From Vicinamibacterales bacterium (GTDB lineage Bacteria; Acidobacteriota; Vicinamibacteria; Vicinamibacterales; UBA2999): DNA of 64,000 bases. Under the pieces are notes generated by a model, which was not told the origin of the DNA, searched no databases, and saw only the letters and a list, made by a program, of their open reading frames with translations. The stretch is from NCBI GenBank assembly GCA_036802945.1, contig DAIRVG010000001.1:97166-161165 (forward strand), read 5' to 3'. How positions within the stretch are numbered: the first letter of the stretch is position 1; each line of letters opens with the position of its first letter. Shown piece by piece: positions 2,741 to 39,542 of the stretch. The position numbers were made by a program, and so were the translations under genes.

Positions 2741-3678
2741 CGCATTTCCTCATCGTGTCGCTCTCGCGCAGTGGTGGGAAGCTGCTTCGGATGCTCCTTG
2801 ACGGTCATCCGAGCCTGAACGCGATCCCCTTCGAACACTGGAACCGATCGTCAAAGGGGGACTTCCCCGCGCGTCGTATCGACGCGTTCGCGCGGTTGTC
2901 GCTCGACCAGAAACTTGCGACGGCCGGTGCGCCGCATGTCGAGCGTAAGTTGCGCCGCTTTCATCCTGACTCACAGGTCGTGGACATCATGAGTCGATGG
3001 CGGGCGGCGAGCGTGGATGCGCAAACGCTCGCGGCGATGTACGAACGCTTCGCGACGAACTATTTCGCTGCTATCGGGAAGGATCCCGCGCGAATCGTTG
3101 TGAACCACTGCGGCAGCCTGTGCCGGTTGTCGCGTGAGCAGCTCGATGCGCTGTACGGGGAGGGACGCCACTTGCTGACGATCCGGGACCCGCGCGCCGT
3201 CTTTGCCTCGATGGAGGCGATGCTGTACCGGAAGTTCACGATCAAGCACGTCCAGAAGAGGAAGGTGTCGGAGACGATGCTCGAGCGGCACATTCAGAAG
3301 CTCGAGCTGATTGATGGCGTATCGACGTACGTGCGCGAGTTCTGTGCCGACTATCGCCACATGATGTCGCACCACGCCGCGCGTGCCGACGTGGTTCGCA
3401 TACGCTTCGAGGATCTGGTGACCTCGCCGGAGGCGGTCACGAAGCAGCTCGCCGCGCAGCTGGCAATCCCCTGGGACAAGTCTCTGTTGAAGCCAACGGA
3501 GTTTGGCGTGGCCCGTGCGGCGAACTCGTCCTTCGGCCGCCAGGGCGTCGGGATTCACAGCCGTGCCGCTGACGACTGGGTCACGCGCCTTTCGCCAGCG
3601 ACACGCCGGTACCTCGAGGAAAATCTGGAAGGCGAGATGGCCGCGCTCGGTTATCAGCCCCTGGCGGCGCAGGTATAG
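2737..3678 (+). CDS. PAPS-dependent sulfotransferase
   Basis: 5'-PSB-like IVSLSRSGGKLL and 3'-PB-like LLTIRDPRAVFAS. ATG at 2737 overlaps the upstream TGA. The longer ORF from 2506 is an out-of-gene extension. Confidence 0.8.
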   Translation: MTHFLIVSLSRSGGKLLRMLLDGHPSLNAIPFEHWNRSSKGDFPARRIDAFARLSLDQKLATAGAPHVERKLRRFHPDSQVVDIMSRWRAASVDAQTLAAMYERFATNYFAAIGKDPARIVVNHCGSLCRLSREQLDALYGEGRHLLTIRDPRAVFASMEAMLYRKFTIKHVQKRKVSETMLERHIQKLELIDGVSTYVREFCADYRHMMSHHAARADVVRIRFEDLVTSPEAVTKQLAAQLAIPWDKSLLKPTEFGVARAANSSFGRQGVGIHSRAADDWVTRLSPATRRYLEENLEGEMAALGYQPLAAQV

Positions 3679-3705: not shown

Positions 3706-4860
3706 GTGAACACACCTCCGGCCGCGCCACGAATCGTCCTCGGGATGACGCTGCACAACAACGCGCGTCACCTGCGCGAAGCTGCCACGTCTCTCCTTGC
3801 CCAGACACGCACCGATTTCGTCCTGCTGATGCTCGATGACGCCTCGACCGACGCGACGGAAGCGATCGCACGGGAGTACGAACGGCATGACCCGCGCGTG
3901 CGCTACTTCCGGCACGAGCTCCGGCAAGGCATGGTCCGCACGTGGCGTGAGGTGGCTGAGCTGTCCTGGCGCGAATATCCCTCCGCTGAATACTTCGCCT
4001 GGACGAGTGATCACGATCGATGGGAGCCTGACTGGCTTGCCCGGCTCGCGCAGGAACTGGAGAGTCACCAGAACGTGGTGCTCGCATACCCGTTGTGCTC
4101 GTGGATCGACGACGAGGGAGAGCCCGTGGCCAAACGGCCGCGGCAGTTCGCGACACGTGGTCTGGCTGTTCTTCGAGAAAGATGGTCCCACTTCTGCCAC
4201 GACATCGTCGGAGCGGGCGACATGGTTTACGGCCTGATGCGCATCCCGGCGCTGCGTGCCGCGGGCGTCTTTCGCGTGGTCCTGCGCCCGGATCGGCTCC
4301 TCATGGCGCAGATGACCCTGCAGGGGGAGATCAGCCAGACCCAGGAGATTCTCTGGATACGCCGGCAGACGGGTACGGGCAGCGTGACGCGCCAGGGCCG
4401 GACGCTGGTTGCGACCCGGCGTCCGTGGTGGTTCTGGCTGCCTCCATGGACACAGCACGCGTTTGTGTTGTTGCGCGAGCACGGCGCGCCCAATGCCTCT
4501 CCCCGAATACCCCTCGCAACGCTGCTGTGGATGGTGGTCCTGTACCAGGCGACCTATACATGGCGGCACGTCAAGCGTGCCGGCCTTGCGCAGGGCATGG
4601 AGTCGTTCGTCAGCGGCTGCCAGTCGGTGAGGAAGAACGTCAGGCGGACGTATGGCGAGTCGCTGGTGTGGGCGCGTCTCGCTGGCCGCCACGCCGCCGG
4701 CCGGTTGCGCTGGCAGACGCGGCGCGCCCGTCACGAGTTGCCGTTGGCGACACGCGCGATGTCCGCCCGGGTTCGACGTGCCTGTCGCCACCGCGTTCGC
4801 GATGCGCTGGTCCTCACACGTCGTCTCGGTCTCCGGGGCAATTCATCTCCACGAGAATGA
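3706..4860 (+). CDS. Family-2 glycosyltransferase (paralog of the C-terminal half of 9546-11678)
   Basis: IVLGMTLHNNARHL, LLMLDDASTDAT and FAWTSDHDRWEPDWL. GTG start. Arg-rich C-terminal tail. Confidence 0.8.
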   Translation: MNTPPAAPRIVLGMTLHNNARHLREAATSLLAQTRTDFVLLMLDDASTDATEAIAREYERHDPRVRYFRHELRQGMVRTWREVAELSWREYPSAEYFAWTSDHDRWEPDWLARLAQELESHQNVVLAYPLCSWIDDEGEPVAKRPRQFATRGLAVLRERWSHFCHDIVGAGDMVYGLMRIPALRAAGVFRVVLRPDRLLMAQMTLQGEISQTQEILWIRRQTGTGSVTRQGRTLVATRRPWWFWLPPWTQHAFVLLREHGAPNASPRIPLATLLWMVVLYQATYTWRHVKRAGLAQGMESFVSGCQSVRKNVRRTYGESLVWARLAGRHAAGRLRWQTRRARHELPLATRAMSARVRRACRHRVRDALVLTRRLGLRGNSSPRE

Positions 4861-4930: not shown

Positions 4931-6097
4931 ATGAGAAAGGTCTGTGTCTTCATCGGCTCACGAGCCAACTACAGCAGCATCAAGTCGGTGATGCGCGCGG
5001 TGCAGCGACATTCGGAGCTTCACCTCCAGCTGATCGTCGGCGCGTCGGCACTGCTCGATCGATTCGGATCCGTCGTCGACGTGATCGAGGCTGACGGATT
5101 CAGGCCCGATGCCCGCGTCGCGATGATCGTGGAGGGGGAGACCCCGGCGACGATGGCGAAATCCACCGGGCTCGCACTCCTCGAGCTGCCGACAATGTTC
5201 GATCTCCTGAAGCCAGACATCGTCGTCTCGGTGGGCGACCGGTTCGAGACGATGGCGACCGCGATTGCCGCGGCGTACATGAACATTCCGGTTGCCCACA
5301 CGATGGGCGGAGAGGTGACCGGCACGATCGACGAGAGCATCCGGCATGCCGTGACGAAGCTGTCGCACGTGCACTTTCCGGCCAACACGGCCGCGGCGGA
5401 ACGGATCATCCGCATGGGCGAGCACCCCGATACGGTGCACCCGGTCGGCTGCCCTCGGATCGATCTTGTCAAGGAGATCGCGAGCGCCAGCGGTGGCTCG
5501 CCGCACGAAGACTGGCTGGAACGCGACGGCGTCGGCGCGCACGTCGACCTGTCGAAACCTTTCCTGCTCGTGAACCACCATCCCGTTACGACCGAATACG
5601 GTCAGGGCAAGGATCAAATCTGGGAAACGCTCTGGGCGCTGAACGAGTTGAAAATGCCGACGATCATGCTCTGGCCCAACGTCGATGCGGGCTCCGAGGA
5701 CATCGCGACCGGCATGCGGACGTTTCGCGAGAAGCTGAAGCCCGACTACATCCGGTTCTACAAGAACTTCCCGATCGAAACGTACGTGCGGCTCATGATG
5801 TTGTGCGCGTGTGCCGCAGGGAACTCGAGCGCGCCCATTCGGGAGGGGGCGTTCCTCGGTGTCCCCGCGGTGAACATCGGCACGAGGCAGACGGGGCGCG
5901 ATCGGGGCCCGAACGTGCGGGACGTCGGGTATTCGCGGGACGAAATTGCAGATGCCATCCGCGGACAGGTCGCGCACGGACGATTTCCATCCGATCAGTT
6001 GTACGGCGATGGACATGCCGGCGTGCGGGTGGCCGACGTGCTCGCACACGTCCCCTTGACGGTGCAGAAGCGTCTCGTGTTCATGCAACCCGCCTGA
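4931..6097 (+). CDS. neuC: UDP-sugar 2-epimerase, hydrolysing (NeuC/LegG type), copy 1
   Basis: KVCVFIGSRANYSS, GDRFETMA and HTMGGEVTGTIDESIRHAVTKLSHVHF. ATG at 4931 within the longer ORF 4652-6097. Confidence 0.85.
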   Translation: MRKVCVFIGSRANYSSIKSVMRAVQRHSELHLQLIVGASALLDRFGSVVDVIEADGFRPDARVAMIVEGETPATMAKSTGLALLELPTMFDLLKPDIVVSVGDRFETMATAIAAAYMNIPVAHTMGGEVTGTIDESIRHAVTKLSHVHFPANTAAAERIIRMGEHPDTVHPVGCPRIDLVKEIASASGGSPHEDWLERDGVGAHVDLSKPFLLVNHHPVTTEYGQGKDQIWETLWALNELKMPTIMLWPNVDAGSEDIATGMRTFREKLKPDYIRFYKNFPIETYVRLMMLCACAAGNSSAPIREGAFLGVPAVNIGTRQTGRDRGPNVRDVGYSRDEIADAIRGQVAHGRFPSDQLYGDGHAGVRVADVLAHVPLTVQKRLVFMQPA

Positions 6098-6801
6098 TGA
6101 AGGTCCTCGGTGTCATTCCTGCGCGCGGCGGATCGAAAGGCGTACCCGGCAAGAATCTGCGCTTCGTCGCCGGAAAGCCGTTGATCGCATACACAATCGA
6201 TGCGGCTCGCGCCAGCCGTCGGTTGAGCCGAGTGGTGTTGAGCACGGACGACCCCGCGATCGCGGACGCGGGGCGGGCGCTCGGCGCCGAGGTGCCGTTC
6301 ATGCGTCCCGCTGAACTTGCGTCCGACGACGCCGCCATACTGCCGGTGCTTCGCCACACGACTCACGAGATGGCGGTGCGCGGCTTCGAGGCGGATGCGG
6401 TGGTCCTGTTGCAACCGACGTCGCCGCTGCGCCGCGGCGAGCACATCGATGCCGCCATCGATCTGCTGGCGCAGACCGGTGCAGATTCAGTGGTGAGTAT
6501 TGTCGAGGTGCCGCATCAGTTCAGCCCCGGATCGCTGATGCAGCTCGACGGTGATCGACTGCGGCCGGTGACGGACGGTCCACTCGTCCTGCAGCGGCAG
6601 CACAAGCCTTCCGTTTATGCGCGCAACGGTCCAGCGGTGCTTGCCGTTCGCACCGCGCAGCTCGCGCGAGGGGCGCTCTATGGGAGCGACACGCGCGCCA
6701 TCGTCATGACCGCCGAAGAATCGCTCGACATCGACGCGCCCTGGGATCTCGAGCTGCTCGAGTTCATTCTCTCGCGCCGTATGGCACGTCATGCCGGCTG
6801 A
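6097..6801 (+). CDS. neuA: Acylneuraminate/nonulosonate cytidylyltransferase, copy 1
   Basis: VIPARGGSKGVPGKN and LLQPTSPLR. The ATG overlaps the neuC stop. Confidence 0.85.
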   Translation: MKVLGVIPARGGSKGVPGKNLRFVAGKPLIAYTIDAARASRRLSRVVLSTDDPAIADAGRALGAEVPFMRPAELASDDAAILPVLRHTTHEMAVRGFEADAVVLLQPTSPLRRGEHIDAAIDLLAQTGADSVVSIVEVPHQFSPGSLMQLDGDRLRPVTDGPLVLQRQHKPSVYARNGPAVLAVRTAQLARGALYGSDTRAIVMTAEESLDIDAPWDLELLEFILSRRMARHAG

Positions 6802-7825
6802 CGCGCTCGACCAACAGGCTACGATGCAGATTCCCTATCGGCGTGTCGCGGAGTACGAGCCGGTCGACGTGACGCAATTGCGGCCCGGAAGCTCGTACCA
6901 GCAGCTGATTGCGAAGCGAACGCACCCGATCGATGAACTGGTGCGCGTGCACGGCAAGATCCCGGAGGCCTTGCTCACTCCGCGCGTGTGTCCGACGTGC
7001 GGCAGCGAGCACGAGAAACTGGAGCTCGAGAAGGATCACATGCGGATCGTGCGGTGCACTGGGTGCGATCTCGTCTACGTCAGCCCGACGTTCGATGAAG
7101 CTCACTACAAGGCGGTGTACGCGTCGGCTGAGTACCAGGAGATCGTGCGCGATCTCGGCGCCAGGAGCCACGAGTACCGCGTCGCGAGGTTCGGTGCCGA
7201 GCGCGTGGCGCTGATGACGCAGCATGTGCGCGGGACGCGACCGCGGTACGTGGACGTCGGCTGCAGCACGGGGTTCGTCGTCGAGGCCGCCCGTGATGCC
7301 GGTTGGGACGCTGTCGGGATCGATCTAAACCCGTCCGCGATCGAGTTCGGTCGTGCACGCGGGCTCGACCTGCGTATCGCGGCGCTCGAGGATGCCGGCC
7401 TGGCGGCAGAGAGCTTTGACGCGGTGTCGCTTTTCGACGTGTTGGAGCATCTCCTCGATCCCGTTCGCACGCTGCGCGCCAGCATCCGCCTCCTGAAGGC
7501 CGGCGGCATCATCTTTCTCTATGTGCCGAACTACGATTCGGCTTCACGGCTGCTCATGGGGAGCGCCGCGCACTTCATCTGGCCGACCCACCACCTGAAC
7601 TACTACACGCCTGTCACGATTCGCGATCTCATGGCCCGTGAAGGGCTTGCGACGGAGTACGTCGCAACCGAGGGGCTCGACATCGTGGACTACCTCTGGT
7701 ACCGCCGTGAGGTTCTCGGCAAGGGAGACGAGGGTGTGGCGGAGATTGCCGACACACTGCAGTTCCTCACGAATGCCGGCGCTTACGGCAAGAATCTTCG
7801 AGTCATCGCCCGCAAGTGCGGATGA
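6791..7825 (+). CDS. Class I SAM-dependent methyltransferase with N-terminal Cys4 zinc ribbon
   Basis: CPTCGS...CTGCDLVYVSP, SAM motif VDVGCSTGFVV and DAVSLFDVLEHLLDP. Confidence 0.8.
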   Translation: MPADALDQQATMQIPYRRVAEYEPVDVTQLRPGSSYQQLIAKRTHPIDELVRVHGKIPEALLTPRVCPTCGSEHEKLELEKDHMRIVRCTGCDLVYVSPTFDEAHYKAVYASAEYQEIVRDLGARSHEYRVARFGAERVALMTQHVRGTRPRYVDVGCSTGFVVEAARDAGWDAVGIDLNPSAIEFGRARGLDLRIAALEDAGLAAESFDAVSLFDVLEHLLDPVRTLRASIRLLKAGGIIFLYVPNYDSASRLLMGSAAHFIWPTHHLNYYTPVTIRDLMAREGLATEYVATEGLDIVDYLWYRREVLGKGDEGVAEIADTLQFLTNAGAYGKNLRVIARKCG

Positions 7826-9549
7826 AGGTCCTCTTCTCGGGTCTGCACTTCGCGTACTTCAGGAACTTCGAATCCGCGATACGCGAGCTGGCTGCGCGCG
7901 GGCACTCGGTACATCTCTCAGCCGATGAGGTCGAGGCCCCGATAAACATGGGCGGCCAGCATCTGGTGGAGTGCCTGGCGGCGCAATGTCCCACGATCTC
8001 ATGGGACCTGGCGCCTTCGCTGGAGCAGGAAACCTGGTTCGATGCAGCCCGGCGTCTGCGGCTTGGCCTGGACTACGTGCGGGTGCTCGAGCCGGCGTAT
8101 GCATCGGCCTCGAAGCTTCGCATGCGCGCGCGCGCGCGCGCGCCGCGTGTCGTCCGATGGGCGGCCGCCGCGCCTGTTATCGGACGTCCGCTGGCGCGTG
8201 CCGGGCTCACAGGCGCCGAACGCGCGCTGCCGGCCAGCGAGGCGCTGAAGGACTACCTGCGGCGTCACGATCCGGACGTCGTCGTGCTCGTCTCGCTGAC
8301 CTATTCACGATCACAGCAGTTCGACCTCCTGAAGGCCGCGCGGGGCCTCGGGATCCCAGTGGCCGCGGCGATCATGAGCTGGGACCATCTGTCCAGCAAG
8401 GCGCTGCTCCACGTGGCTCCGGACATGATCATTGTCTGGAACGACCTGCAGCGTCAGGAAGCGGTGGAGATGCACGGCCTTCCCTCCGACCGCATCGTGG
8501 TCACCGGCGCCCAGTGTTACGACCAGTGGTTCAGCCGCACGCCCGAGCGAAGCCGGGAGGAGTTCTGTCGCGCGATGGGGTTGCGCGAGGATCGTCCATT
8601 CGTCCTGTGGGTGCACTCGGCCATGAGTCCAGTGCCCGACCCGCCTGAGCCCGTGCTCGTCACGCAGTGGCTCGACGCCCTCCGATCGAGTCACGATGCG
8701 CGGTTGCGCGATCTGGGTGTGCTGGTGCGGCCCCATCCCGAGCGATTGAAGGAATGGGCGGGCGTGGATCTGGGGCGTTTCGACAATGTCGTGTTCCGTG
8801 GCGGCAACCCGATCGACGCGCGCTCCAAGGAGGACTACTTCGACGCCCTGTACTACAGCAGGGCGGTGATCGGCCTCGTCACGAGCGCGTTTCTCGAGGC
8901 CGCGGTGGTCGGACGCCCGGTGTTCACGTTCACGCTGCCGGAATATCGCGTCCACCAGGAGGAGATGCTCCACTTCCGCTATCTCACGAGCGTGGCGGGC
9001 GGGCTGCTTTCGACGGCGCCCGACATTCCCACACACCTGGCGCAACTCGCCGATGCGATCGCCGAGCCCGAGGGGCGCGACCAGCGCAACCGGCGTTTTC
9101 TGACGGCGTTCGTTCGGCCCGCGGGACTCGACGTCCCGGCGACGCCCGCATTCGTCGACGCGATCGAGCGGTTGCACCGCGACGGGACGCGCGGCGATCC
9201 AGGTCTTCGTGGTGACTCCTGGATCACGCCCCTCGTGGTCGCCGCCGCGGGGGCGGCGCGGACCGGCGTCGGACGATGGCTGATGCTCGACGTCCGTGGC
9301 GACGAGACCGACGACCATCGCGATCGGAAGCAACGCATCATCAGCGCGCGGGCCGCCGCGAAAGCCACCCGGCAGCACGCAAAAGCGCGGCGGCGCGCCC
9401 GGCGGGCGCGTCGTGATGCCATCCTGCGGGGCGGCAAGGAAGTGAAAAGCGCGCTTCTTCTCATCCGCTATCACGCCGCCGTGGCCGTCCATCGAGCGCT
9501 CGCGCTCACCGGTTTCGATCGGAATCATCCGGGAGCCGGCAAGGAATGA
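7822..9549 (+). CDS. Family A uncharacterised GT-B-like protein, paralog 1 of 3
   Basis: MKVLFSGLHFAYFRNFESAIRELAARGH, MSWDHLSSKALL, VLVRPHPERLKEW and VTSAFLEAAVVGRPV. ATG 7822 overlaps the upstream TGA. Basic C-terminal tail. Confidence 0.75.
   Translation: MKVLFSGLHFAYFRNFESAIRELAARGHSVHLSADEVEAPINMGGQHLVECLAAQCPTISWDLAPSLEQETWFDAARRLRLGLDYVRVLEPAYASASKLRMRARARAPRVVRWAAAAPVIGRPLARAGLTGAERALPASEALKDYLRRHDPDVVVLVSLTYSRSQQFDLLKAARGLGIPVAAAIMSWDHLSSKALLHVAPDMIIVWNDLQRQEAVEMHGLPSDRIVVTGAQCYDQWFSRTPERSREEFCRAMGLREDRPFVLWVHSAMSPVPDPPEPVLVTQWLDALRSSHDARLRDLGVLVRPHPERLKEWAGVDLGRFDNVVFRGGNPIDARSKEDYFDALYYSRAVIGLVTSAFLEAAVVGRPVFTFTLPEYRVHQEEMLHFRYLTSVAGGLLSTAPDIPTHLAQLADAIAEPEGRDQRNRRFLTAFVRPAGLDVPATPAFVDAIERLHRDGTRGDPGLRGDSWITPLVVAAAGAARTGVGRWLMLDVRGDETDDHRDRKQRIISARAAAKATRQHAKARRRARRARRDAILRGGKEVKSALLLIRYHAAVAVHRALALTGFDRNHPGAGKE
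8124..8143. repeat. (GC)10 dinucleotide tract inside family A paralog 1
   Basis: A perfectly alternating G/C run of 20 nt that encodes RARARA. Confidence 0.9.
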
Positions 9550-11678
9550 TGACGGAGGACCCCGCGTTCGCGGCGTATCTGGACGCGCGCGAGGCGGTGG
9601 AGCGAATCAAAGGATCCGGCGCGCCATCCGGGGTCGCCCGCCCGAGCGCCTACTGGCTCGAAGAGCTCGAGCAGATCGACTATCTCGCGGACGCGTCGCC
9701 GCTGATCGTCCGCAAGCTGCGACACCACGCGTTCCACATCACCGGCATCCGTCCTTACGACTATCGTGAAAAGGGAGACGGCCGCAGGCAACGATTCGAG
9801 GGGAGGCTGCAGGCGCTGCGGGCTCTCGACCATGCCGGGTTGATGGTGCCTGAGTCGCCCGCCCTCGGTGGATTCGGCTACGAGATCGACGGCCACCTGT
9901 TCAACGTCGACACGCTGAAGTTCTACGAGGTGTTGATCGCGATGCAGCGCGGCGGCGTGCTCGACGCGATGCGCGGGATCGATCGGCCGCTCGTGTGCGA
10001 GATCGGCGCAGGATGGGGAGGGTTCGCCTATCAGTTCAAGACGCTGTTCCCGCGCGCCACGTACGTCATCGTCGATTTCGCGGAGCTGTTCCTCTTTTCG
10101 GCTACCTACCTGAAGACCGTTTTCCCGGACGCGACCCTCCGCTTCGTCGGCGAAGATTTCGATCTGACGTCCGGCGCCTGGCGCGACGCGGACTTCCTGT
10201 TTGTGCCGAACACGCTCGCGCATCTCGTCTCCTCGTTGCCGCTCGACCTCACGCTCAACATGGTCTCGTTCCAGGAGATGACCGAGGCTCAGGTGCGGAC
10301 GTACGTCGGTATGGCAGCAGACGCGCGGTGCCCGTTGCTTTACAGTCTCAACCGCGAACGTTCGTCATACAACAGCCAGCTGACCAGCGTCTCCGAAGTG
10401 TTGTCGGATCGTTACGAACTTGCTGAGGTGACGGTTCTCGACACTGATTACCCCACCGGACTGAAGAAACCGCCGAAGCCCGGCAAGACCGCCGAGCGGC
10501 CGGATCTTGCCTACCGCCATCAGGTGGGCAGGCTCAGTACGGGACCGGTGCGTTCGCTCGACTCCGCGGCCGAATTCGCCTCTGCACGTCACGCATCACG
10601 AGTCGTGCTCGGGATGACGCTCTACAACAATGCCGAGCACCTGCGGGGCGCACTCGATTCGCTCCTCGCTCAGACATGGCGCGACTTCACGCTCGTGTTG
10701 CTCGACGATGCGTCCAGCGACGACACTGAGCGAATCGCGCGGGAGTACGCCGGGCGTGATGCGCGCGTCCTCTACTTCCGCCACGCCGAGCGCAAGGCGA
10801 TGATCGCCACGTGGCGCGAAGTAGTCGTGCTGGCCGGCGAGGCGAGCCCGTCGGCGGTCTATTTCGCGTGGGTGAGTGACCACGATCGCTGGCACCCCCG
10901 ATGGCTCGAGGCCATGGTTGGCGAGCTCGATCGCGATCCTGGAGTCGTGCTCGCGTATCCCATCACGCGACGCATCGCACCGGATACCGGGATCGAGCTC
11001 GACAAGGGACCGCGGCTTTTCGAGACGATGGCGTTGCACGACGTCCGCAGCCGCTGGTCGTACTTCTGTCGTCACGCCGTGGGCTCCGGCGACATGGTGT
11101 ACGGCCTCATGCGACTGGATGCCCTGCGGCGGGCCGGAATCTTCCGCACGGTCCTGCGTCCCGATCGGTTGCTCATTGCCGAGTTGACGCTCGCCGGCCG
11201 CATACGTCAGGTGCCGGAGGTCCTCTGGTTCCGCCGGCAGTCAGCCGCGACGAGCGTCTCACGGCAGCGGCACACGCTGGTCCTGCCGCAAGAAGCGCCG
11301 CGATGGTTTGCCGCGCCGCCATGGCTCCAGCATGCGCTGGTGCTGTGGCGCGAGTACGTCACGCCCGATCCACGTCCGATTCCGTTGCCGACGTCGCAGT
11401 GGGCGCGGATGGTGGTGCTGTACCAGGTGCGCTACGGTTGGCGCCACCTGCGCAAGTCGGAGACGTCGCACGTCGTCGGCCGCGGTATCGACAACACGAT
11501 CTGGGCAAAGAAGATCACCCGCCACTACTACCATCACGCCATTTACCGCACGCTGGTTGGCACTCGCGCGGCGTGGGGCAAGCTGCGCCGGCTCGCGCGG
11601 CGCGGCGTGTATCACGTGCTCGTGCTCACGCACCGCGTGCGGCATCGCCGGGGCAGCGAGGAAACGCCGATCCGGTGA
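9546..11678 (+). CDS. Bifunctional protein: N-terminal putative sugar O-methyltransferase fused to a C-terminal GT2 domain
   Basis: N-terminal half CEIGAGWGGFAYQF ... NMVSFQEMTE. C-terminal half VVLGMTLYNNAEHL, LVLLDDASSDDT and FAWVSDHDRWHPRWL, co-linear with 3706-4860. Confidence 0.8.
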   Translation: MMTEDPAFAAYLDAREAVERIKGSGAPSGVARPSAYWLEELEQIDYLADASPLIVRKLRHHAFHITGIRPYDYREKGDGRRQRFEGRLQALRALDHAGLMVPESPALGGFGYEIDGHLFNVDTLKFYEVLIAMQRGGVLDAMRGIDRPLVCEIGAGWGGFAYQFKTLFPRATYVIVDFAELFLFSATYLKTVFPDATLRFVGEDFDLTSGAWRDADFLFVPNTLAHLVSSLPLDLTLNMVSFQEMTEAQVRTYVGMAADARCPLLYSLNRERSSYNSQLTSVSEVLSDRYELAEVTVLDTDYPTGLKKPPKPGKTAERPDLAYRHQVGRLSTGPVRSLDSAAEFASARHASRVVLGMTLYNNAEHLRGALDSLLAQTWRDFTLVLLDDASSDDTERIAREYAGRDARVLYFRHAERKAMIATWREVVVLAGEASPSAVYFAWVSDHDRWHPRWLEAMVGELDRDPGVVLAYPITRRIAPDTGIELDKGPRLFETMALHDVRSRWSYFCRHAVGSGDMVYGLMRLDALRRAGIFRTVLRPDRLLIAELTLAGRIRQVPEVLWFRRQSAATSVSRQRHTLVLPQEAPRWFAAPPWLQHALVLWREYVTPDPRPIPLPTSQWARMVVLYQVRYGWRHLRKSETSHVVGRGIDNTIWAKKITRHYYHHAIYRTLVGTRAAWGKLRRLARRGVYHVLVLTHRVRHRRGSEETPIR

Positions 11679-13282
11679 AGATTCTCTTCGTCGCGCGCCA
11701 CTTCACGTACTTCCGAAACTTCGATTCGGTCTTGCGGCTGCTTGCGTCCCACGGGCACGCGATTCACCTCGCGGTTGAGCGGGACGAGACGCAAGGGCTC
11801 GGCGGCGTGGCCCTCGTGGAGCGCCTGGCGGCGGACTATCCATCCATCACTTTCGGCGAGGCGCCGGGTCGAGAACCCGACGAATGGGCCCGGTTGTCGG
11901 CCAAGATCCGCCTGGCGTTCGACTACGTCAGATATCTCGATCCGCAATATGACGGTACGCCGCGGCTTCGTTCGCGCTCCGCGGAGCGCGCACCGGAGTT
12001 TGCGATCCGTTTTGGCCAGACCTCCCTGGCACGGCGCCGGCTGGCGCGCGCGGCGCTGCGACGGGTGCTGCGCGCGGCCGACGGGTCCCTGCCCCCGAGC
12101 AAACAGATCGAGGCGTTTCTGCGCGAGCAGCGTCCGGACGTGATGCTCATCACGCCGCTCATTGGCGTCGTCGGATCGCCGCAGCCCGACTACGTGCGCG
12201 CAGCCCGTGCCCTGGGGATCCCGACCGCGCTTGCCGTCTGGAGCTGGGATCATCTGTCGAGCAAGGCGCTCATCCGGGATCTGCCCGATCGCGTCTTCGT
12301 CTGGAACGAGGTCCAGCGATCGGAGGCGAAGCGGTTTCACGGCGTCCCGCGCGATCGCGTCGTCGTCACGGGCGCGCAGTGCTTCGATCACTGGTTCGAC
12401 CGCAAGGTGTCCCGCAGCCGCATCGAGTTCTGCGCTGACATGGGGTTGCCCGCCGATCGTCCACTGATCATGTACGTAGGGTCGGCGCTGTTTCGCGGCA
12501 GCCCCCCTGAAGTCGACTTCGTCATGGAATGGATCGCGCGCCTCCGCGCTAGCGCCGATCCCGCGCTCCGGAACGCGGCCATCCTGATTCGGCCGCATCC
12601 ACAGCGGATGGATGAATGGCGGAACGTGGACGTCGCGACGTTAGCGGACGTCGCCCTAAGAAGCGCGAACCCGGTGACCGAGGAGGCGCGCGCGGATTAT
12701 TTCGACGCGCTGTTTTTCAGCAGAGCCGTTGTCGGCCTCAATACGAGCGCATTCCTGGAAGCGGGCATCGTGGGCCGTCCGGTATTGGCGATTCTGCCGA
12801 CCGAGTACCACGACAATCAGGAGGGCACGCTGCACTTCCGCTACCTGACCGATGTCTCGGGCGGGCTCGTGCGCGTCAGCCGCTCGCTCGATGAGAACGA
12901 GGCGCAGCTGCGTCCCGTCCTCGCCGCCCCCGATGACGCCGCTGCGGTGCGCCGGTTCGTCGAGACTTTCCTGCGCCCGTACGGTCTCGACGTCCCTGCA
13001 ACGCCGAGATTTGCCGCCGCCGTCGAGGCGTTGCGGGATGTGCGGGTCCGACGCGGCAGTCGAATGCCGTCGCCGCTTGGGCGCGCCGCGCTCAACACGA
13101 TGGTGGCAATTGGCCAGTCTTCGCAGCATCGTGCGTGGATGTTCGACCAGGAAGAGCGCAACTACGAGGAGTGGCGCCGCCGGAAAGGCGAAATCCGCTC
13201 AAAGAACAGACGTGCGGGCCTCACCCCGGAACAGCAAGCCGAGGCCGAGCGAGAAATGCGCGCACATCGGGCGAACCCGTGA
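11675..13282 (+). CDS. Family A uncharacterised GT-B-like protein, paralog 2 of 3
   Basis: VKILFVARHFTYFRNFDSVLRLLASHGH, WSWDHLSSKALI, ILIRPHPQRMDEW and NTSAFLEAGIVGRPV. GTG 11675 overlaps the upstream TGA. Confidence 0.75.
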   Translation: MKILFVARHFTYFRNFDSVLRLLASHGHAIHLAVERDETQGLGGVALVERLAADYPSITFGEAPGREPDEWARLSAKIRLAFDYVRYLDPQYDGTPRLRSRSAERAPEFAIRFGQTSLARRRLARAALRRVLRAADGSLPPSKQIEAFLREQRPDVMLITPLIGVVGSPQPDYVRAARALGIPTALAVWSWDHLSSKALIRDLPDRVFVWNEVQRSEAKRFHGVPRDRVVVTGAQCFDHWFDRKVSRSRIEFCADMGLPADRPLIMYVGSALFRGSPPEVDFVMEWIARLRASADPALRNAAILIRPHPQRMDEWRNVDVATLADVALRSANPVTEEARADYFDALFFSRAVVGLNTSAFLEAGIVGRPVLAILPTEYHDNQEGTLHFRYLTDVSGGLVRVSRSLDENEAQLRPVLAAPDDAAAVRRFVETFLRPYGLDVPATPRFAAAVEALRDVRVRRGSRMPSPLGRAALNTMVAIGQSSQHRAWMFDQEERNYEEWRRRKGEIRSKNRRAGLTPEQQAEAEREMRAHRANP

Positions 13283-13287
13283 CACAG

Positions 13288-15963
13288 ATGAAGATTCTGT
13301 TCTTCGCGAGGCACTACTCGTATTTGCGGCTGTTCGAGTCGGCCATCCTGGAGCTCGCCCAGCGTGGCCACCACATTCACCTTGCCGCGGACCGCGAGGA
13401 AGCCATGGGCGGCCGCCGACTGGCGGAGCGGCTCGCCGAGAAGTACCCGAACGTGACGCTTGGCACGACGCCAGGGCGGGCGCCCGGCGCCTGGGCCGAG
13501 TTTGCGCGTCGTCTCCGCATGGGGATCGACTACCTGCGGTATCTCGATCCGCGGTACGAGGACACACCGCACCTGAAGGCGCGCGCGCGCGAACGCGCTC
13601 CCCGCAGCATCGTGACCCTCGCGGAACGTCTCCGCCCCGGCGGCGGCCGCCGCGCGCTCGCGAGTCTGCTGCGCACACTCGAGCGTGGCATTCCGACCAC
13701 GCGATCTCTCGAGAACTACATCCGCCAGCAGCATCCGGACGTCGTGCTGATCACGCCGCTGGTGGAGCTGGGCTCGCCTCAGATGGATCATCTGGCTGCC
13801 GCGAAAGCCCTCGGGATCCGCACTGCGTTGCCTGTCGCGAGCTGGGATCACCTTTCGAGCAAGGCGCTGGTGCGCAATTATCCAGACCTGCTGCTCGTCT
13901 GGAACGAGATTCAGAAGCGGGAAGCGGTCGAGATGCACGGCGTTGCGCCCGATCGGGTCGTTGTCACCGGCGCGCATTGCTACGATCAGTGGTTCGACCG
14001 CTCGCCGTCGAGGAGCCGCGAGAGCTTCTGCGCTCGCGTCGGGCTCCGGTCGGACAGGCCGCTGGTGCTCTATCTCTGTTCGTCGCTGTTCCGCGGGACC
14101 GCCAGCGAGGCGGCTGTCGTCGAACGCTGGGTCGAAGCAATCCGAACCAGCGACGATCCCCGCTTGAAAGACATCGGCATCCTGATCCGCCCGCATCCGG
14201 CCCGACTCGACGAATGGAAGCACGTCGATCTCTCCGGATACCGAAACATCGTGTTCTGGGGCGCGCATCCGGTCGATGCCGAGGCCAAGGACGACTATTT
14301 CGATTCGCTGTATTACAGCGCTGCGGTCGTCGGCCTGAATACGAGCGCCTTTCTCGAAGCAGCCGTGGTCGGCAAGCCGGTGCACACCGTGCTCGTCGAC
14401 GAGATCTCTCGGGTCAACCAGGAAGGGACAATTCATTTCCACTACCTGATGGAAGTGAACGGCGGGTTGCTGCGCGTCGCGCGGACGTTCGACGAGCATC
14501 TTCTGCTGCTGGCCGACTCGCTCGCGCCCGAAGGCGGCGGCGACACCAAAGCGCAACGCTTCGTCGAAGGATTCATCCGGCCGCTCGGCGCATCGGTTCC
14601 TGCGACGCCTCGCTTCGCGGACGCAATCGAGAGGCTTGCAGCGTCGCCTGCGCCGCATGCGCAGGGTGACGGGATCGTGGAGCGCGCCATCCGACTGGCG
14701 CTCTATCCCGCGGTCGGCGTTCTGCATGCGCTGCTCGCGACGCAGCCGCAACGGAAGCGGGTGCGACTGAAGTTCAGCAAGTGGCACCAGGACGGACGCC
14801 GCCGCGTCTTCGTGAAGCTGAAGCAGTTTGCGCAGAGCCAGCTTGGCGAGAAGGAGTTGACGGCCGCTCCCCTCGGTCCGCCGTCGGCGCTCACTCCAAA
14901 GCCGGGCCGTCAGCGGGATCCCGCGAAGAAGCTGGCCGGCTGGAATCTGCCCGAAGCAGAAGAAACGCGCGCGCTGATCAACTCGCTTGGTCGGGGTGGA
15001 CGACCGATCCTGATCGGACCATGGTTGTCGGAGGCCGGGTTCGAGCTGCTCTATTGGATTCCGTTCCTCGCGTGGGCGAAGGCATACGGCAACCTCGATC
15101 CGTCGCAGCTCGTGGTCATCTCTCGCGGGGGTGCGTTCTCCTGGTATCGCGACATCACGACCCAGTACGAGGATGTGTTGTCCTTCTTCACGCCAGACGA
15201 ATTCCGCGCTCGCAACGACGGGCGCATCATCGAGCAGCGCGGACGGATGAAGCACGTCGAAATCTCCAGCTTCGATCGGGAGATCATTGCGAAGGTGAGC
15301 GAGAAGCGCGGCTTGAGCGGCGTTCGCCTGCTGCATCCGTCGACGATGTACCGCCTGTTCGATCATTTCTGGTTCCAGCGCGTGCCGGTCACACTCATCG
15401 AAGCGTTCACGTCGTTCGGGCCGCTGCCGCCCGTTGAGATCGGCGACCTGCGAAGCCGGTTGCCGGAGCGCTACGCCGCCGCGAAGTTCTACGGCAACAC
15501 CGCGTTGCCGGACACCCCGGAGAATCAGGCGTTCGTGGCGTCGTATCTCGAGGAGTTGACGCGCCACATCGACGTCGTGCTCCTCAACACCGGACAACGG
15601 TTCGACGATCACGAGGACATGGCGCGGCTCAATCGCAGCCGCATTCATACCGTCGATCACCTGATGACGCCCGAGACCAATCTCGACGTCCAGACGCGGA
15701 TTATCGCGGGCGCCGAGGCGTACGTCGGCACCTATGGAGGGTTTTCGTACCTGGCTCCCTTTGTCGGCACGCACGCGCTGACGTTCTACTCGCACATCAC
15801 CGGCTTCCGGTTCGATCACCTCGAGGTGGCCAAGCGCGTCTTCTCCGGACTGCGGGAGGGAAGCTTCGTCGAGATCGATCTTCGCTCGATGGATCTGATG
15901 CGCCTCGGTCTTGGTGGCGCGTCACATACGACAGACGCGCTCGCGGGGGCGAGGCGAGGTTGA
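13288..15963 (+). CDS. Fusion protein: family A domain (about aa 1-450), basic linker, family B domain (about aa 560-891)
   Basis: N-terminal MKILFFARHYSYLRLFESAILELAQRGH, ASWDHLSSKALV and ILIRPHPARLDEW. C-terminal ILIGPWLSEAGFELLYWIPFLAW, LHPSTMYRLF and VGTYGGFSYLAPFVG. Confidence 0.8.
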   Translation: MKILFFARHYSYLRLFESAILELAQRGHHIHLAADREEAMGGRRLAERLAEKYPNVTLGTTPGRAPGAWAEFARRLRMGIDYLRYLDPRYEDTPHLKARARERAPRSIVTLAERLRPGGGRRALASLLRTLERGIPTTRSLENYIRQQHPDVVLITPLVELGSPQMDHLAAAKALGIRTALPVASWDHLSSKALVRNYPDLLLVWNEIQKREAVEMHGVAPDRVVVTGAHCYDQWFDRSPSRSRESFCARVGLRSDRPLVLYLCSSLFRGTASEAAVVERWVEAIRTSDDPRLKDIGILIRPHPARLDEWKHVDLSGYRNIVFWGAHPVDAEAKDDYFDSLYYSAAVVGLNTSAFLEAAVVGKPVHTVLVDEISRVNQEGTIHFHYLMEVNGGLLRVARTFDEHLLLLADSLAPEGGGDTKAQRFVEGFIRPLGASVPATPRFADAIERLAASPAPHAQGDGIVERAIRLALYPAVGVLHALLATQPQRKRVRLKFSKWHQDGRRRVFVKLKQFAQSQLGEKELTAAPLGPPSALTPKPGRQRDPAKKLAGWNLPEAEETRALINSLGRGGRPILIGPWLSEAGFELLYWIPFLAWAKAYGNLDPSQLVVISRGGAFSWYRDITTQYEDVLSFFTPDEFRARNDGRIIEQRGRMKHVEISSFDREIIAKVSEKRGLSGVRLLHPSTMYRLFDHFWFQRVPVTLIEAFTSFGPLPPVEIGDLRSRLPERYAAAKFYGNTALPDTPENQAFVASYLEELTRHIDVVLLNTGQRFDDHEDMARLNRSRIHTVDHLMTPETNLDVQTRIIAGAEAYVGTYGGFSYLAPFVGTHALTFYSHITGFRFDHLEVAKRVFSGLREGSFVEIDLRSMDLMRLGLGGASHTTDALAGARRG

Positions 15964-15982: not shown

Positions 15983-17014
15983 ATGCTGCGCGCGCTGAGA
16001 CGGCCTGTCCGCGAGATGCTGCGGCATCGAGCGGAGCTGCGCGAACAGCTGGACTGGTCGCGTACGGCGTGGCAGGTCGAGCGCGAAATCGACGACATCG
16101 CCGCCGGCAGCCGCACGCTCGTCGTCGGCCCGTGGCTCTCCGAGGTAGGGTACGAGGCCCTCTATTGGATCCCTTTTCTTCGCTGGGTGAAGGCCGCGTT
16201 TCGCATCGATGCGTCACGGGTTGTGGCGGTGTCACGCGGCGGGGTGGGCTCGTGGTACGAAGGAATCGCCGGCCGGTACGTCGAAATCTGGGATGAGTGC
16301 GACCCGGCGGAATTTGCCGTTCGCGCCGCGGAACGGGGCGCCACGAAGCAGCACGAGGTCTCGGCGTTCGATCGCGAGGTCATCGCGGCGGTCGAACGCC
16401 GGCTGGGCGAACGCGTGGATGTCCTCCATCCGTCGCTGATGTACCGGCTTTTCTCTCTGTTCTGGTCCGGTCAGAAGCCGCTGGGCTTTCTCGACGCGCA
16501 TACCCGCTTCGAGCCGGTGGCGCCCCCGCGGATCGTCGATGCCAGCCGTCTCCCGCGCGAATACGTCGCGGTGAAGTTCTATGCGGCGCGCTCGCTGCCG
16601 GATACGCCGGAAATCCGCCGCACGCTCGCGTGGTTTGTCGACAGCCTGGCCGAGCGCACCAACGTCGTGCTGCTCGAGACCGGACTCGTACTCGACGAAC
16701 ACACCGACTACACCTTCGGGTCCTCGGGGCGTGTCATCAGCGCGAAGCCGTGGATGACGCCGGCCAACAATCTGGGGGTGCAGACGCAGGTCATTGCCGG
16801 AGCGCAGGCGTTCCTCGGCACCTGCGGCAGCGTGGCGTGGCTTGCCCCGATGCTCGGTGTGAACACGTCGGCGGTGTACGTCGATCCCAAGTGGCTGCAC
16901 GCGCACCTCGGGGTCGCGCTGCGCGCCTGTCATCGCGCGGGCGCCGGCCGGTTTGCGGCGATGGACCTCCGGGCGCTCGATCCCCTCGGCATCCCGGTGC
17001 ACGTCCGTTCATGA
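15983..17014 (+). CDS. Family B uncharacterised protein (GPWLSEVGYE family), stand-alone copy 1
   Basis: VVGPWLSEVGYEALYWIPFLRW, VSRGGVGSWY, LHPSLMYRLF, YVAVKFY and LGTCGSVAWLAPMLG. The start is chosen as the first ATG after the upstream stop. Confidence 0.7.
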   Translation: MLRALRRPVREMLRHRAELREQLDWSRTAWQVEREIDDIAAGSRTLVVGPWLSEVGYEALYWIPFLRWVKAAFRIDASRVVAVSRGGVGSWYEGIAGRYVEIWDECDPAEFAVRAAERGATKQHEVSAFDREVIAAVERRLGERVDVLHPSLMYRLFSLFWSGQKPLGFLDAHTRFEPVAPPRIVDASRLPREYVAVKFYAARSLPDTPEIRRTLAWFVDSLAERTNVVLLETGLVLDEHTDYTFGSSGRVISAKPWMTPANNLGVQTQVIAGAQAFLGTCGSVAWLAPMLGVNTSAVYVDPKWLHAHLGVALRACHRAGAGRFAAMDLRALDPLGIPVHVRS

Positions 17015-18078
17015 CAGGCATGTCATTCAACTCGCATCCCGCGCTCGCCGGTCTCGGCTCCGGCCGGTGTCTCGTCATCGGCGAGGTCGCGCTCACCCAC
17101 GACGGCAGCCTCGGCCTGGCGCATGCGTTCGTCGATGCGATCGCGGACGCCGGCGCGGACGCGGTGAAATTCCAGACACACATCGCAGCCGGCGAGAGCA
17201 CGCCCTCGGAGCCCTTCCGCGTGAAGTTCAGCCGCCAGGACGAGACCCGCTACGACTACTGGAAGCGGATGGAGTTCTCCGAGGACCAGTGGCGCGGACT
17301 CGCGGATCACGCGCGCCACCGCGGCATGCTGTTTCTCTCGTCGCCCTTTTCGGTGCAGGCGATCGAGCTGCTCGATCGTATTGGCATGCCGCTGTGGAAG
17401 ATCGCATCGGGTGAAACCTCGAATATGATGCTGCTCGATCGCGTTCTCGACACACGCAAGCCCGTGCTGCTCTCGACCGGCATGAGCCCGATCGCGGAGA
17501 TCGATTCGGCGGTCGCCCGCGTGCGCGCGCGCGACGTCGACGTCGGGGTGTTCCAGTGCACGACCGCCTATCCATGCCCGGCGGAAAAGATCGGCCTCAA
17601 TCTCATCCCGTTTTACAGGGAGCGATATGGGTGCTGGGTGGGGCTGTCGGATCATTCGGCGACGATCTATCCGGGCCTCGCCGGGGCGGCGCTCGGCATG
17701 GACATGCTCGAAGTACACGTGGCGCTTTCGCGAGAGATGTTCGGACCGGACGTGATCGCGTCGGTCACCACCTCTGAATTGCGCCAACTGGTCGACGGTG
17801 TGCGCTTCATCGAGCGCATGCGCGCCAACCCGATCGACAAGAACGCGTCGGCGCAGGAAACCGCGCCACTGCGCAAGCTGTTCACCCGGAGCCTCGTGGC
17901 AAGCAGGGATCTGCCCGCGGGCACCGTCATCACGCGCGAACATCTGGCGGTCAAGAAACCGGGTACCGGTCTCTCGCCGGATCGCCTCGAGGAGCTCATT
18001 GGCCGGCGCCTTGCGCGCCCCGTTATTGCAGATCAACTCCTTGCGGTGGAGGATATCGAAGGACCCGCCCGCTCTTGA
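17011..18078 (+). CDS. neuB: N-acylneuraminate/nonulosonate synthase (bacterial NeuB/LegI type)
   Basis: VIGEVALTHDGSLGLAHAFVDAIADAGADAVKFQTH, KIASGE, GLSDHS and a C-terminal SAF-like LVASRDLPAGTVITREHLAVKKPG. The ATG overlaps the upstream TGA. Confidence 0.85.
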   Translation: MTGMSFNSHPALAGLGSGRCLVIGEVALTHDGSLGLAHAFVDAIADAGADAVKFQTHIAAGESTPSEPFRVKFSRQDETRYDYWKRMEFSEDQWRGLADHARHRGMLFLSSPFSVQAIELLDRIGMPLWKIASGETSNMMLLDRVLDTRKPVLLSTGMSPIAEIDSAVARVRARDVDVGVFQCTTAYPCPAEKIGLNLIPFYRERYGCWVGLSDHSATIYPGLAGAALGMDMLEVHVALSREMFGPDVIASVTTSELRQLVDGVRFIERMRANPIDKNASAQETAPLRKLFTRSLVASRDLPAGTVITREHLAVKKPGTGLSPDRLEELIGRRLARPVIADQLLAVEDIEGPARS

Positions 18079-19232
18079 CCAAACGAAAAATCTGCGTCGT
18101 CGTCACCGCCCGCCCCAGCTACTCCCGTATCCGCAGCGCCCTCAAAGCCGTCAACGAGCATCCCGATCTCCAGCTCCAGCTCGTCGTAGCCGCGTCCGCG
18201 CTGCTCGACCGTTACGGCAATGCGATCCAGGCGATCGAACGCGACGGGTTCGCGATCGAGCAGCGCGTCTACATGGTGCTCGAGGGCGAGAACCTCGTGA
18301 CCTCCGCAAAGTCCACAGGTATCGGGCTCTCGGAGCTCGCGACGGTGTTCGACAACCTCAAGCCGGACGCGGTCGTCACGGTCGCGGATCGCTACGAGAC
18401 GCTCGCGACCGCCGTCGCCGCGTCGTACATGAACATTCCCGTCGTGCACGTGCAGGGCGGGGAGGTGACCGGGTCGATCGATGAGAAGGTGCGCCACGCC
18501 GTCACGAAGCTCGCGAACCTGCACCTAGTGTCCACTCAGCTCGCCGCGGAGCGTGTCCGCCGACTCGGTGAGGAGCCCGACAGCATCTTCGTCACCGGAT
18601 GTCCGTCGATTGACATTGCTGCCGAAGTCGCGGCGCGGCCCGCAATGGATTTCGATCCGTTCGTGAAGTACGGGGGCGTCGGGCCGACCACCGACCTGTC
18701 CAGGGGTTACGTGGTGGTGATGCAGCACCCCGTGACGACTGAGTACGAAGAGGCGCGGCAGCAGGTCGACGAGACGCTGTATGCGGTGAAAAACTTCGGC
18801 GTGCCGGTGCTCTGGTTCTGGCCGAATGTCGACGCCGGATCGGACGGGACATCGAAAGGCATCCGCGTGTTCCGCGAGAAGGAAGATCCACCAAATTTCC
18901 ACCTGTTCCGCAACATGTCCCCGGAAGATTTCCTTCGCCTCCTTTGCGGCGCGACGGCGATTGTCGGCAACTCGAGCGTCGCAATCAGGGAATGCTCGTA
19001 CCTCGGCGTGCCGGCGGTGAACATCGGTAGTCGACAGCTTGGACGCGAACGCGGGCAGAACGTGATCGACGTTGACCACGATCGCAAGGAGATCTCCGAC
19101 GCAGTCCAGACCCACATCAGGCGCGGCAAGCCGACGCGCGATCTCCTGTACGGCGACGGCAAGGCGGGAGGCCGCATCGCCGATTGCCTCTCGAAAGTCG
19201 AGCTGAAGATCGAGAAGAGGTTGACGTATTGA
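18075..19232 (+). CDS. neuC: UDP-sugar 2-epimerase, hydrolysing (NeuC/LegG type), copy 2
   Basis: KICVVVTARPSYSR, ADRYETLA and HVQGGEVTGSIDEKVRHAVTKLANLHL. The TTG start overlaps the neuB stop. Confidence 0.85.
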   Translation: MTKRKICVVVTARPSYSRIRSALKAVNEHPDLQLQLVVAASALLDRYGNAIQAIERDGFAIEQRVYMVLEGENLVTSAKSTGIGLSELATVFDNLKPDAVVTVADRYETLATAVAASYMNIPVVHVQGGEVTGSIDEKVRHAVTKLANLHLVSTQLAAERVRRLGEEPDSIFVTGCPSIDIAAEVAARPAMDFDPFVKYGGVGPTTDLSRGYVVVMQHPVTTEYEEARQQVDETLYAVKNFGVPVLWFWPNVDAGSDGTSKGIRVFREKEDPPNFHLFRNMSPEDFLRLLCGATAIVGNSSVAIRECSYLGVPAVNIGSRQLGRERGQNVIDVDHDRKEISDAVQTHIRRGKPTRDLLYGDGKAGGRIADCLSKVELKIEKRLTY

Positions 19233-19240
19233 CCGTCACC

Positions 19241-20176: not shown

Positions 20177-20193
20177 GTTCGCGCCGCATCTGA

Positions 20194-20903: not shown

Positions 20904-20973
20904 GGCCACGGAGGCACGCAGGCACGGAGGACAATTGTGATTCCTAGCTCCGTGTCTCCGTGTCTCCGTGGCC
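20904..20973. repeat. Intergenic palindrome built from 3+3 tandem 8-mers
   Basis: Left arm GGCCACGGAGGCACGCAGGCACGGAGG, a 17-nt loop, right arm CTCCGTGTCTCCGTGTCTCCGTGGCC. About 23 of 26 positions are complementary. Confidence 0.8.
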
Positions 20974-20980
20974 CGTCGCA

Positions 20981-24404: not shown

Positions 24405-24411
24405 GCGTTCT

Positions 24412-25520: not shown

Positions 25521-25522
25521 AC

Positions 25523-28249: not shown

Positions 28250-28254
28250 GCCTC

Positions 28255-28788: not shown

Positions 28789-28795
28789 GGACCGC

Positions 28796-30508: not shown

Positions 30509-30597
30509 CCCGACCGGTGCTTCGGGGATGCGTCACGTTCGTTTCGCGCACCCGGCGGCGCTCGCGCCCGCGCCGACGTGTCCGGTAAGGAGTGCGA

Positions 30598-32102: not shown

Positions 32103-32117
32103 CGCCGGCACTTATTC

Positions 32118-33218: not shown

Positions 33219-33233
33219 TCTCCTCCTTCAACG

Positions 33234-35152: not shown

Positions 35153-35222
35153 CGCGCCCTTCGTTCCCAGCCTGTGTGGACCATCACGCTGTGGCGGCCG
35201 AAACGGTCAGAGTGAGGATCAT

Positions 35223-37438: not shown

Positions 37439-37483
37439 TTCGTGATTGGCGATTCCAATCACCATTCACCGATCGCTAATCGC
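37435..37483. repeat. Intergenic imperfect palindrome built from about 7 heptamers
   Basis: GTGATTC GTGATTG GCGATTC CAATCAC CATTCAC CGATCGC TAATCGC. The core stem is GTGATTGG-cgatt-CCAATCAC at 37442-37462. Confidence 0.75.
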
Positions 37484-37491
37484 TCATCCTC

Positions 37492-39526: not shown

Positions 39527-39542
39527 GTGGGGAGACACGCCA

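Follow-up and report, generated by a model that had tools for sequence, protein, structure and literature searches.

What is the role of the three related proteins of unassigned family that are encoded within a large glycan cluster of a Vicinamibacterales bacterium (Acidobacteriota)? The window that we analyzed is a stretch of 64,000 nucleotides (assembly GCA_036802945.1, contig DAIRVG010000001.1, positions 97,166 to 161,165, forward strand), and all coordinates given here are those of the window. The proteins, which we call family A and for which a profile hidden Markov model (HMM) was used, are encoded as follows.

7822-9549, + strand: A1, family A copy 1; 575 amino acids (aa), ATG start, with a GTG further upstream at 7816
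11675-13282, + strand: A2, family A copy 2; 535 aa, GTG start; the copy used for structure modeling
13288-15963, + strand: A3, a fusion of family A with a second family, B (A-B fusion protein); 891 aa
13288-14652, + strand: family A module of A3; aa 1-455 by alignment, with the family-A HMM matching aa 1-453

We give a probability of about one half to the reading that family A proteins are cytoplasmic, soluble or peripheral GT-B transferases using nonulosonic acids activated with cytidine monophosphate (CMP-nonulosonates), each paralog forming one linkage of a complex acidic glycan. Enzymes of this general kind and of this fold class are already known; family A lacks annotation, is very large and is amplified to an unusual degree.

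A1, A2 and the first ~455 codons of A3 are paralogs, as the original prediction had proposed. In BLASTP, A2 and A3 were 52% identical over 456 aa (E 4e-157), A1 and A3 51% over 454 aa (E 7e-142) and A1 and A2 44% over 525 aa (E 9e-132), and ~150 columns were invariant in the three-way alignment. Every shared motif quoted in that prediction was found in the alignment, with small deviations in single copies (in A3, GIR for GIP, then ASWDH, and VVTGAHC where GAQC was quoted; in A1, VTSAFLEA for NTSAFLEA). The module end that it had placed at 14640 agrees with the alignment, in which the family A module of A3 stops at about aa 455 (nucleotide ~14652). Its description of three tandem paralogs was right as to the three copies but not as to a strict tandem, because A1 is separated from A2 by the following gene.

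9546-11678, + strand: fusion of a NanM-type sugar O-methyltransferase and a GT2 domain (TIGR04371, 78 bits, cutoff 44; PF00535, 72 bits)

Since this gene overlaps its neighbors at both ends, it belongs to the same operon as A1 and A2. The start of A2 overlaps the stop of the gene upstream by 4 bases, and start and stop codons overlap throughout the family A gene run, which indicates that the run is one operon. The GT2 part of the intervening gene has a standalone paralog at 3706-4860 (50% identity), and many related loci have a GT2 gene at a constant position between family-A genes. The high third-position GC content of the family A open reading frames (ORFs; 0.77-0.80) indicates that they are real coding sequences; the GC content of the window is 65%. 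Further, a public metagenome holds an identical protein (P0001). A1 scores 650 bits with the family-A HMM and consists of a GT-B-like core (aa 1-455) followed by a basic helical tail. Transmembrane segments were not predicted in family A.

Searches of A1-A3 against Pfam and NCBIfam gave no model above cutoff, so that the family is unassigned, as the original prediction had held, and a confident match to a characterized family of unrelated chemistry, sought in the same databases, did not appear above cutoff either. The N-domain model Glyco_transf_4 was matched weakly by 19 of 60 homologs (best score 20.2 bits, cutoff 28.5) and MGDG_synth, also weakly, by 4 of the 60, and Epimerase_2 (PF02350) by none. 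By sequence, family A therefore leans to transferases over epimerases. The Glycos_transf_1 C-domain had no match in A1-A3 or the 60 homologs, and family A does not combine PF13439 and PF00534, both above gathering score, as members of GT4 do. Sialyltransferase families in Pfam and NCBIfam gave no match for A1-A3 at E ≤ 1; their HP motif is present in family A, and their D/E-D/E-G motif is not evident. Sequence and profile searches of the PDB with 3- and 60-sequence family-A profiles returned chance matches only, KpsC not among them, and none of 72,556 plasmids gave a tblastn match to A2.

The family is large. Among 1.84 billion representatives, its HMM matched 6,405 clusters (~6,400 clusters at 50% identity) with E ≤ 1e-3, and the stricter limit of E ≤ 1e-30 left 2,052; A2 had more than 3,894 homologs, every one with the source name 'hypothetical protein'. 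In species-representative genomes we found 206 relatives, nearly all in metagenome-assembled genomes (MAGs) of uncultured Acidobacteriota/Vicinamibacterales; the few that remain come from Acidimicrobiia and other MAGs. Across the family A alignment ~58 columns were invariant and 87 near-invariant; H308 was conserved in at least 90% of sequences, and P309 and E362 were invariant. Many of the invariant residues are Arg, His or Lys, which suits anionic substrates. It is plausible that family A is a candidate new CAZy family. The representative library also holds proteins of 1,000-1,546 aa with two or three tandem family-A modules (P0241-P0255); A-A fusions thus exist.

An AlphaFold2 model of A2, built on the 60-sequence alignment, had a predicted local distance difference test score (pLDDT) of 91.8 and a predicted template modeling score of 0.88. 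The model shows two Rossmann-like halves, each with alternating strand/helix topology; aa ~96-137 form a helical insertion, and beyond aa ~460 there is a basic helical tail. Foldseek gave 285 PDB matches at E ≤ 1e-3, of which the best 50 were all GT-B enzymes. The top matches were UDP-GlcNAc 2-epimerases, including NeuC (E 8e-11, target-normalized template modeling score (TM) 0.67-0.69, 12-16% identity), and close behind came WaaG, MshA, MurG and macrolide glycosyltransferases (GTs; E 2e-9, TM up to 0.68). TagF, KpsC and sialyltransferases were not singled out among the best 50 of the 285. The predicted fold of family A is thus GT-B, and the two-Rossmann layout anticipated from the sequence is borne out by the model.

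The genes that flank the family A run are listed here.

4931-6097, + strand: upstream module 1, NeuC-type hydrolyzing UDP-GlcNAc 2-epimerase (TIGR03568, 376 bits, above cutoff)
6097-6801, + strand: upstream module 1, CMP-nonulosonate synthetase (PF02348)
6791-7825, + strand: upstream module 1, S-adenosylmethionine methyltransferase (PF13489)
17011-20886, + strand: downstream nonulosonate module 2, NeuB-like synthase, NeuC, methyltransferase and CMP-nonulosonate synthetase (PF03102 with SAF; TIGR03568, 377 bits; PF13489; PF02348)

We favor CMP-nonulosonates as donors because NeuC, CMP-synthetase and methyltransferase genes lie upstream and NeuB, NeuC, methyltransferase and CMP-synthetase genes downstream, in a tight series of overlapping genes. 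When 48 related loci, each 15 kb or longer, were scanned with HMMs at the level of ORFs, the association extended to them. Per ~21 kb these loci held a mean of 4.8 family-A and 2.7 family-B genes; two or more A copies were present in 43 of the 48 and family B in 41, and 36 carried NeuB, NeuC or CMP-synthetase within 10 kb, so that the link to CMP-nonulosonate genes suggested by the original prediction recurs beyond the window. The recurrent gene order, NeuC - CMP-synthetase - (methyltransferase) - A - GT2 - A - A-B - (B) - NeuB - NeuC - methyltransferase - CMP-synthetase - B - B, is that of the window. A more distant member, P0031, has the same arrangement, with an Epimerase_2 gene and a CTP_transf_3-methyltransferase fusion immediately downstream of it. 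Three loci (L015, L022 and L027) contain NeuC, CMP-synthetase and several A genes and no B. When paralogs around the GT2 gene were assigned from crude stop-to-stop ORFs, the A-B fusions were the only clear-cut group. A synteny comparison of the lone-copy loci with locus L014 revealed no common neighbors.

In one locus from another Acidobacteriota MAG (L002, region 8299-12694), the genes immediately before an A-B fusion are those for a Capsule_synth (KpsS/KpsC-type) protein and a HAD hydrolase, and NeuB and NeuC genes are absent from its 22 kb. Some family A members may therefore work with chemistry of the 3-deoxy-D-manno-octulosonate (Kdo) type.

The only NCBIfam model matched consistently was NF046086, 'BFO_1060 family glycosyltransferase', to which all 60 homologs had a match (best E 2.7e-9); A1 scored 32.3 bits (E 5.7e-8), A2 25.4 and A3 33.7. 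Since the five family B copies, the GT4 protein and the NeuC of the window do not match this model at E ≤ 1, the match of family A is specific. BFO_1060, Tanf_01245 and TFUB4_00887 are Tannerella forsythia enzymes that are genetically required for the addition of pseudaminic acid (Pse) or legionaminic acid (Leg) derivatives to an O-glycan, and they were described as TagB-like (PMC5420450). Because its closest annotated relative is this group of Pse/Leg transferases, which the original prediction had not mentioned, ulosonic-acid transfer by family A is independently indicated. By sequence comparison, family A is not a member of the BFO_1060 family and appears to be a distant relative of it.

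We compared the two families further with a true BFO_1060 member, recovered from metagenome contigs via a primer published in PMC5420450 (433 bits on NF046086), and with a 40-sequence alignment of its homologs. Against the single protein, an underpowered template, hhalign gave family A a probability of 0.4%. Against the alignment it gave an E value of 0.0034 and a score of 33.3, with 210 collinear columns over both domains; reversed alignments scored 14.8-15.5 and 30 column shuffles at most 25.9. The blocks of family A and BFO_1060 paired in the same order (WSWD/WGWN, VWN/QWS, TGAQCFDxW/SGGVGFDxY, RPHP/KEHP and NTSAFLEA/ESTTAxEA), and the HP and S-T...E motifs of the BFO_1060 C-domain are both present in family A. 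Separately, the BFO_1060 profile met the GT107 module of KpsC (PDB 6mgb_A) at a non-significant E of 0.16, in an alignment that spans the HP and S..E motifs.

The C-terminal part of A3 belongs to family B, which has the following copies in the window.

14977-15963, + strand: family B module of A3, aa ~564-885 (family-B HMM, 468 bits)
15983-17014, + strand: standalone family B paralog, 343 aa (BLASTP, family-B HMM, AlphaFold2)
20960-22021, + strand: family B paralog (BLASTP, family-B HMM)
22003-23271, + strand: family B paralog (BLASTP, family-B HMM)
33758-35152, + strand: fifth family B paralog, within the second nonulosonate pathway block (BLASTP, family-B HMM)

The C-terminal ~330 aa of A3 have the four standalone paralogs listed (36-48% identity), to which the family B module of A3 was 38-42% identical in BLASTP, and the family-B HMM, built from standalone sequences only, did not match A1 or A2. 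Family B also lacks an assignment in Pfam and NCBIfam, and its homologs, at least 1,793, are all named 'hypothetical'. The AlphaFold2 model of the 15983-17014 product (pLDDT 84.8) is weakly GT-B-like, and its nearest Foldseek neighbors were GT9 heptosyltransferases (E 2e-5, TM ~0.45). On these models A3 is a protein of two predicted GT-B modules. In related loci, family B flanks NeuB and CMP-synthetase. The 48-locus survey contained 60 A-B fusions; A3 was the nearest paralog of each of the 59 that gave a score, so the fusion is old.

The donors would be CMP-activated sialic-acid-like sugars supplied by the adjacent NeuC, NeuB and CMP-synthetase genes, probably in O-methylated form, and the glycan would be assembled stepwise on a lipid carrier, the linkages being divided among the family A paralogs. 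By analogy with other GT-B enzymes, the nucleotide may be held by the C-terminal Rossmann domain, in which there are two candidate elements, the RPHP loop that follows C-strand 2 and, behind C-strand 4, the NTSAFLEA loop-helix. The sugar would meet its acceptor in a cleft lined by the hinge and by the invariant N-domain loops WSWDHLSSK and TGAQCFDxWF, and the catalytic base is expected there, as D192 or H193. Since its family A module is fused to a second GT-B-like module, A3 may carry out two consecutive transfers in one protein. A broader proposal, which we hold more tentatively than the role of family A itself, is that families A and B form an unrecognized system for assembling oligo- or poly-nonulosonate glycans, perhaps methylated and sulfated, in soil Vicinamibacterales; they would represent one or two new CAZy GT families of CMP-nonulosonate transferases, each locus having about five paralogs that are linkage-specific.

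Several observations weigh against nonulosonate transfer by family A, or against the kinship with BFO_1060 that points to it. Judged by position, the nonulosonate transferases could just as well be family B or several of the GT2 genes, and family B lies nearer to NeuB and CMP-synthetase than family A does. The surveyed loci come mostly from one order, Vicinamibacterales, so that the co-occurrence counts are not phylogenetically independent, and the loci with a lone A copy (n = 5) had no nonulosonate genes within 10 kb and no family B. All 60 homologs scored 25-34 bits on NF046086, below its curated cutoff of 200 bits. The hhalign probability against the BFO_1060 alignment was 9.4%, and family A scored 29.4 against family B, which places the BFO_1060 signal little above generic GT-B likeness. 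With a purpose-built BFO_1060 HMM, A1-A3 ranked first among the 49 proteins of the window, at E 0.12-0.2; because this is non-significant, the claim of homology depends mainly on the broader NCBIfam model. Further, the D/E-D/E-G sialyl motif of BFO_1060 (SEGNF block) falls in a 16-column gap of family A, and the best structural neighbors of A2 use donors activated with uridine, thymidine or adenosine diphosphate (UDP, TDP or ADP).

The strongest alternative is that family A proteins are ordinary GT-B transferases of hexoses activated with nucleoside diphosphates (NDP; UDP-, GDP- or ADP-sugars), which build a non-ulosonic backbone to which family B, GT2 or another protein adds the nonulosonates. 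UDP- and TDP-dependent enzymes (WaaG, MshA, MurG and macrolide GTs) are among the best Foldseek neighbors, Glyco_transf_4 and MGDG_synth match the N-domain weakly, family B directly flanks NeuB and CMP-synthetase in the conserved order, and the cluster also makes other activated sugars. However, neither the Glycos_transf_1 C-domain nor another NDP-sugar GT family is matched, the sole specific annotated relative is a family of nonulosonate transferases, and the three loci with NeuC, CMP-synthetase and several A genes lack B. We regard this alternative as the main rival, though less likely than nonulosonate transfer by family A.

Considerably less probable are phosphotransferases resembling TagF or TagB, which would join CDP-polyols or sugar-1-phosphates into a teichoic-acid-like phosphodiester polymer. 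The RPHP and NTS..E blocks resemble motifs of the TagF family, and the original prediction had seen in the R-x-HP block, and in the layout, a likeness to TagF- and KpsC/KpsS-type enzymes. However, both blocks are elements by which GT-B C-domains bind nucleotides in general, and they do not identify the donor. No comparison supported a specific likeness: Glyphos_transf (PF04464) matched none of A1-A3 at E ≤ 1 and one of the 60 homologs, non-significantly (E 0.097); Capsule_synth (PF05159) matched neither A1-A3 nor any of the 60; hhalign with one Capsule_synth protein, taken from a related locus, put the probability at 2.7%; and epimerases, WaaG, MshA and MurG are nearer in structure than TagF, which was not among the best 50 of the 285 Foldseek matches. 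The BFO_1060 proteins have themselves been called TagB-like, and a cytidylyltransferase-like gene is present at 24310-24858; this gene, however, scores best as an RfaE domain II-type heptose-1-phosphate adenylyltransferase and not as TagD, and the conserved partners of family A are NeuB, NeuC and CMP-synthetase genes.

Least probable of all are non-transferase roles, as GT-B-fold sugar-nucleotide epimerases or hydrolases or as non-catalytic scaffolds: the epimerases that head the Foldseek matches lead true GTs by a small margin at low identity, no homolog matches Epimerase_2 and the locus already has two bona fide NeuC, the presence of about five diverged copies at a locus, and of A-A and A-B fusions, fits linkage-specific transferases better, and the invariant and near-invariant columns argue for catalysis.

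The family A genes lie in a single co-directional glycan cluster at ~1-59,000. Overall, the cluster encodes two NeuC equivalogs, two NeuB-like synthases, three CMP-nonulosonate synthetases, three methyltransferases, a Leg/Pse-type pathway (dehydratase, aminotransferases and acetyltransferases), five GT2 domains, one GT4 and a WecA-like initiating transferase. Its other activated-sugar enzymes are a GDP-mannose dehydratase, a UDP-glucose dehydrogenase, an RmlD-like protein and DegT. The following genes lie at its head.

1020-1598: adenosine 5'-phosphosulfate (APS) kinase
1589-2740: 383-aa protein without a family match
2506-3678: Sulfotransfer_3 protein

The APS kinase and sulfotransferase genes suggest that the glycan is sulfated. 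Two genes at 24992-28249 and 28559-30508 encode large polytopic membrane proteins (~14 and ~10 predicted transmembrane segments, no Pfam match), which account for the strongly negative AT skew at 24992-30508; each is a candidate polymerase, ligase, flippase or oligosaccharyltransferase for the glycan. The region 30589-46682 contains the second, Leg/Pse-like nonulosonate pathway, with LegB-like, PseC/LegC-like, NeuB-like and PseF-like genes, and genes for two hexapeptide acyltransferases, a GFO oxidoreductase, an SDR protein, an aldehyde dehydrogenase, a transketolase-like protein and a HAD hydrolase. The last four hint at an unusual N-acyl or side-chain modification. Two cluster genes, at 38539-39471 (310 aa) and 46667-48415 (582 aa), are without family assignment. 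The end of the cluster is marked by ergothioneine-type biosynthesis genes at 61431-63766, one EgtB-like (DinB_2 and FGE-sulfatase) and one EgtD-like (histidine-specific methyltransferase). A literature search for nonulosonic acids in Acidobacteria or Vicinamibacter gave no relevant paper.

Few transferases are known for the bacterial nonulosonic acids (sialic, legionaminic and pseudaminic). If our reading is right, family A is among the largest untapped sources of nonulosonate transferases for glyco-engineering, and surface glycans of the sialic-acid-like type are a heavy investment for the abundant, uncultured Acidobacteria of soil. At minimum, a new family model is justified, which would name thousands of 'hypothetical proteins'.

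Among known systems, the closest solved folds are those of the UDP-GlcNAc 2-epimerases (WecB/NeuC, PF02350) and of GT4 and GT28 (E 1e-10 to 1e-8, TM 0.6-0.69); these enzymes share 12-16% identity with family A, have different invariant motifs, and the Epimerase_2 and Glycos_transf_1 models do not match family A. The GT-B sialyltransferases of GT38 (polysialyltransferases), GT52 and GT80 have an HP motif in the C-domain, as family A does, and are polymer builders found beside neuABC genes; however, family A has no Pfam or NCBIfam match to them, and D/E-D/E-G is not at the expected place. Neisseria W/Y capsule polymerases (GT4 + GT97) contain two GT-B modules, and the A-B fusion resembles such polymerases. 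GT107 (KpsC), GT99 (WbbB), GT118 (the pseudaminyltransferase KpsS1) and GT140 (KrkA) are GT-B-derived retaining enzymes with CMP-ulosonic acid donors, often multi-module builders of acidic polymers; family A has no detectable sequence or profile similarity to them, and they are not among the structural matches listed. New retaining ulosonic-acid GT-B families are still being defined, GT118 in 2024 and GT140 in 2026 (PMC12887879).

The BFO_1060 family is found in Bacteroidota and others, and family A in Acidobacteriota. In contrast to BFO_1060, family A is ~90 aa longer, with aa ~96-137 forming the helical insertion and with a basic tail at the C-terminus, and lacks the D/E-D/E-G block, and it occurs in about five copies per locus, fused to family B or to itself. 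Both families, however, consist of soluble two-domain GT-B-type proteins encoded beside CMP-nonulosonate biosynthesis genes, and both carry, in collinear order, W-x-W-D/N, G-x-x-x-F-D-x-W/Y, the HP motif and S/T-S/T-x-x-x-E.

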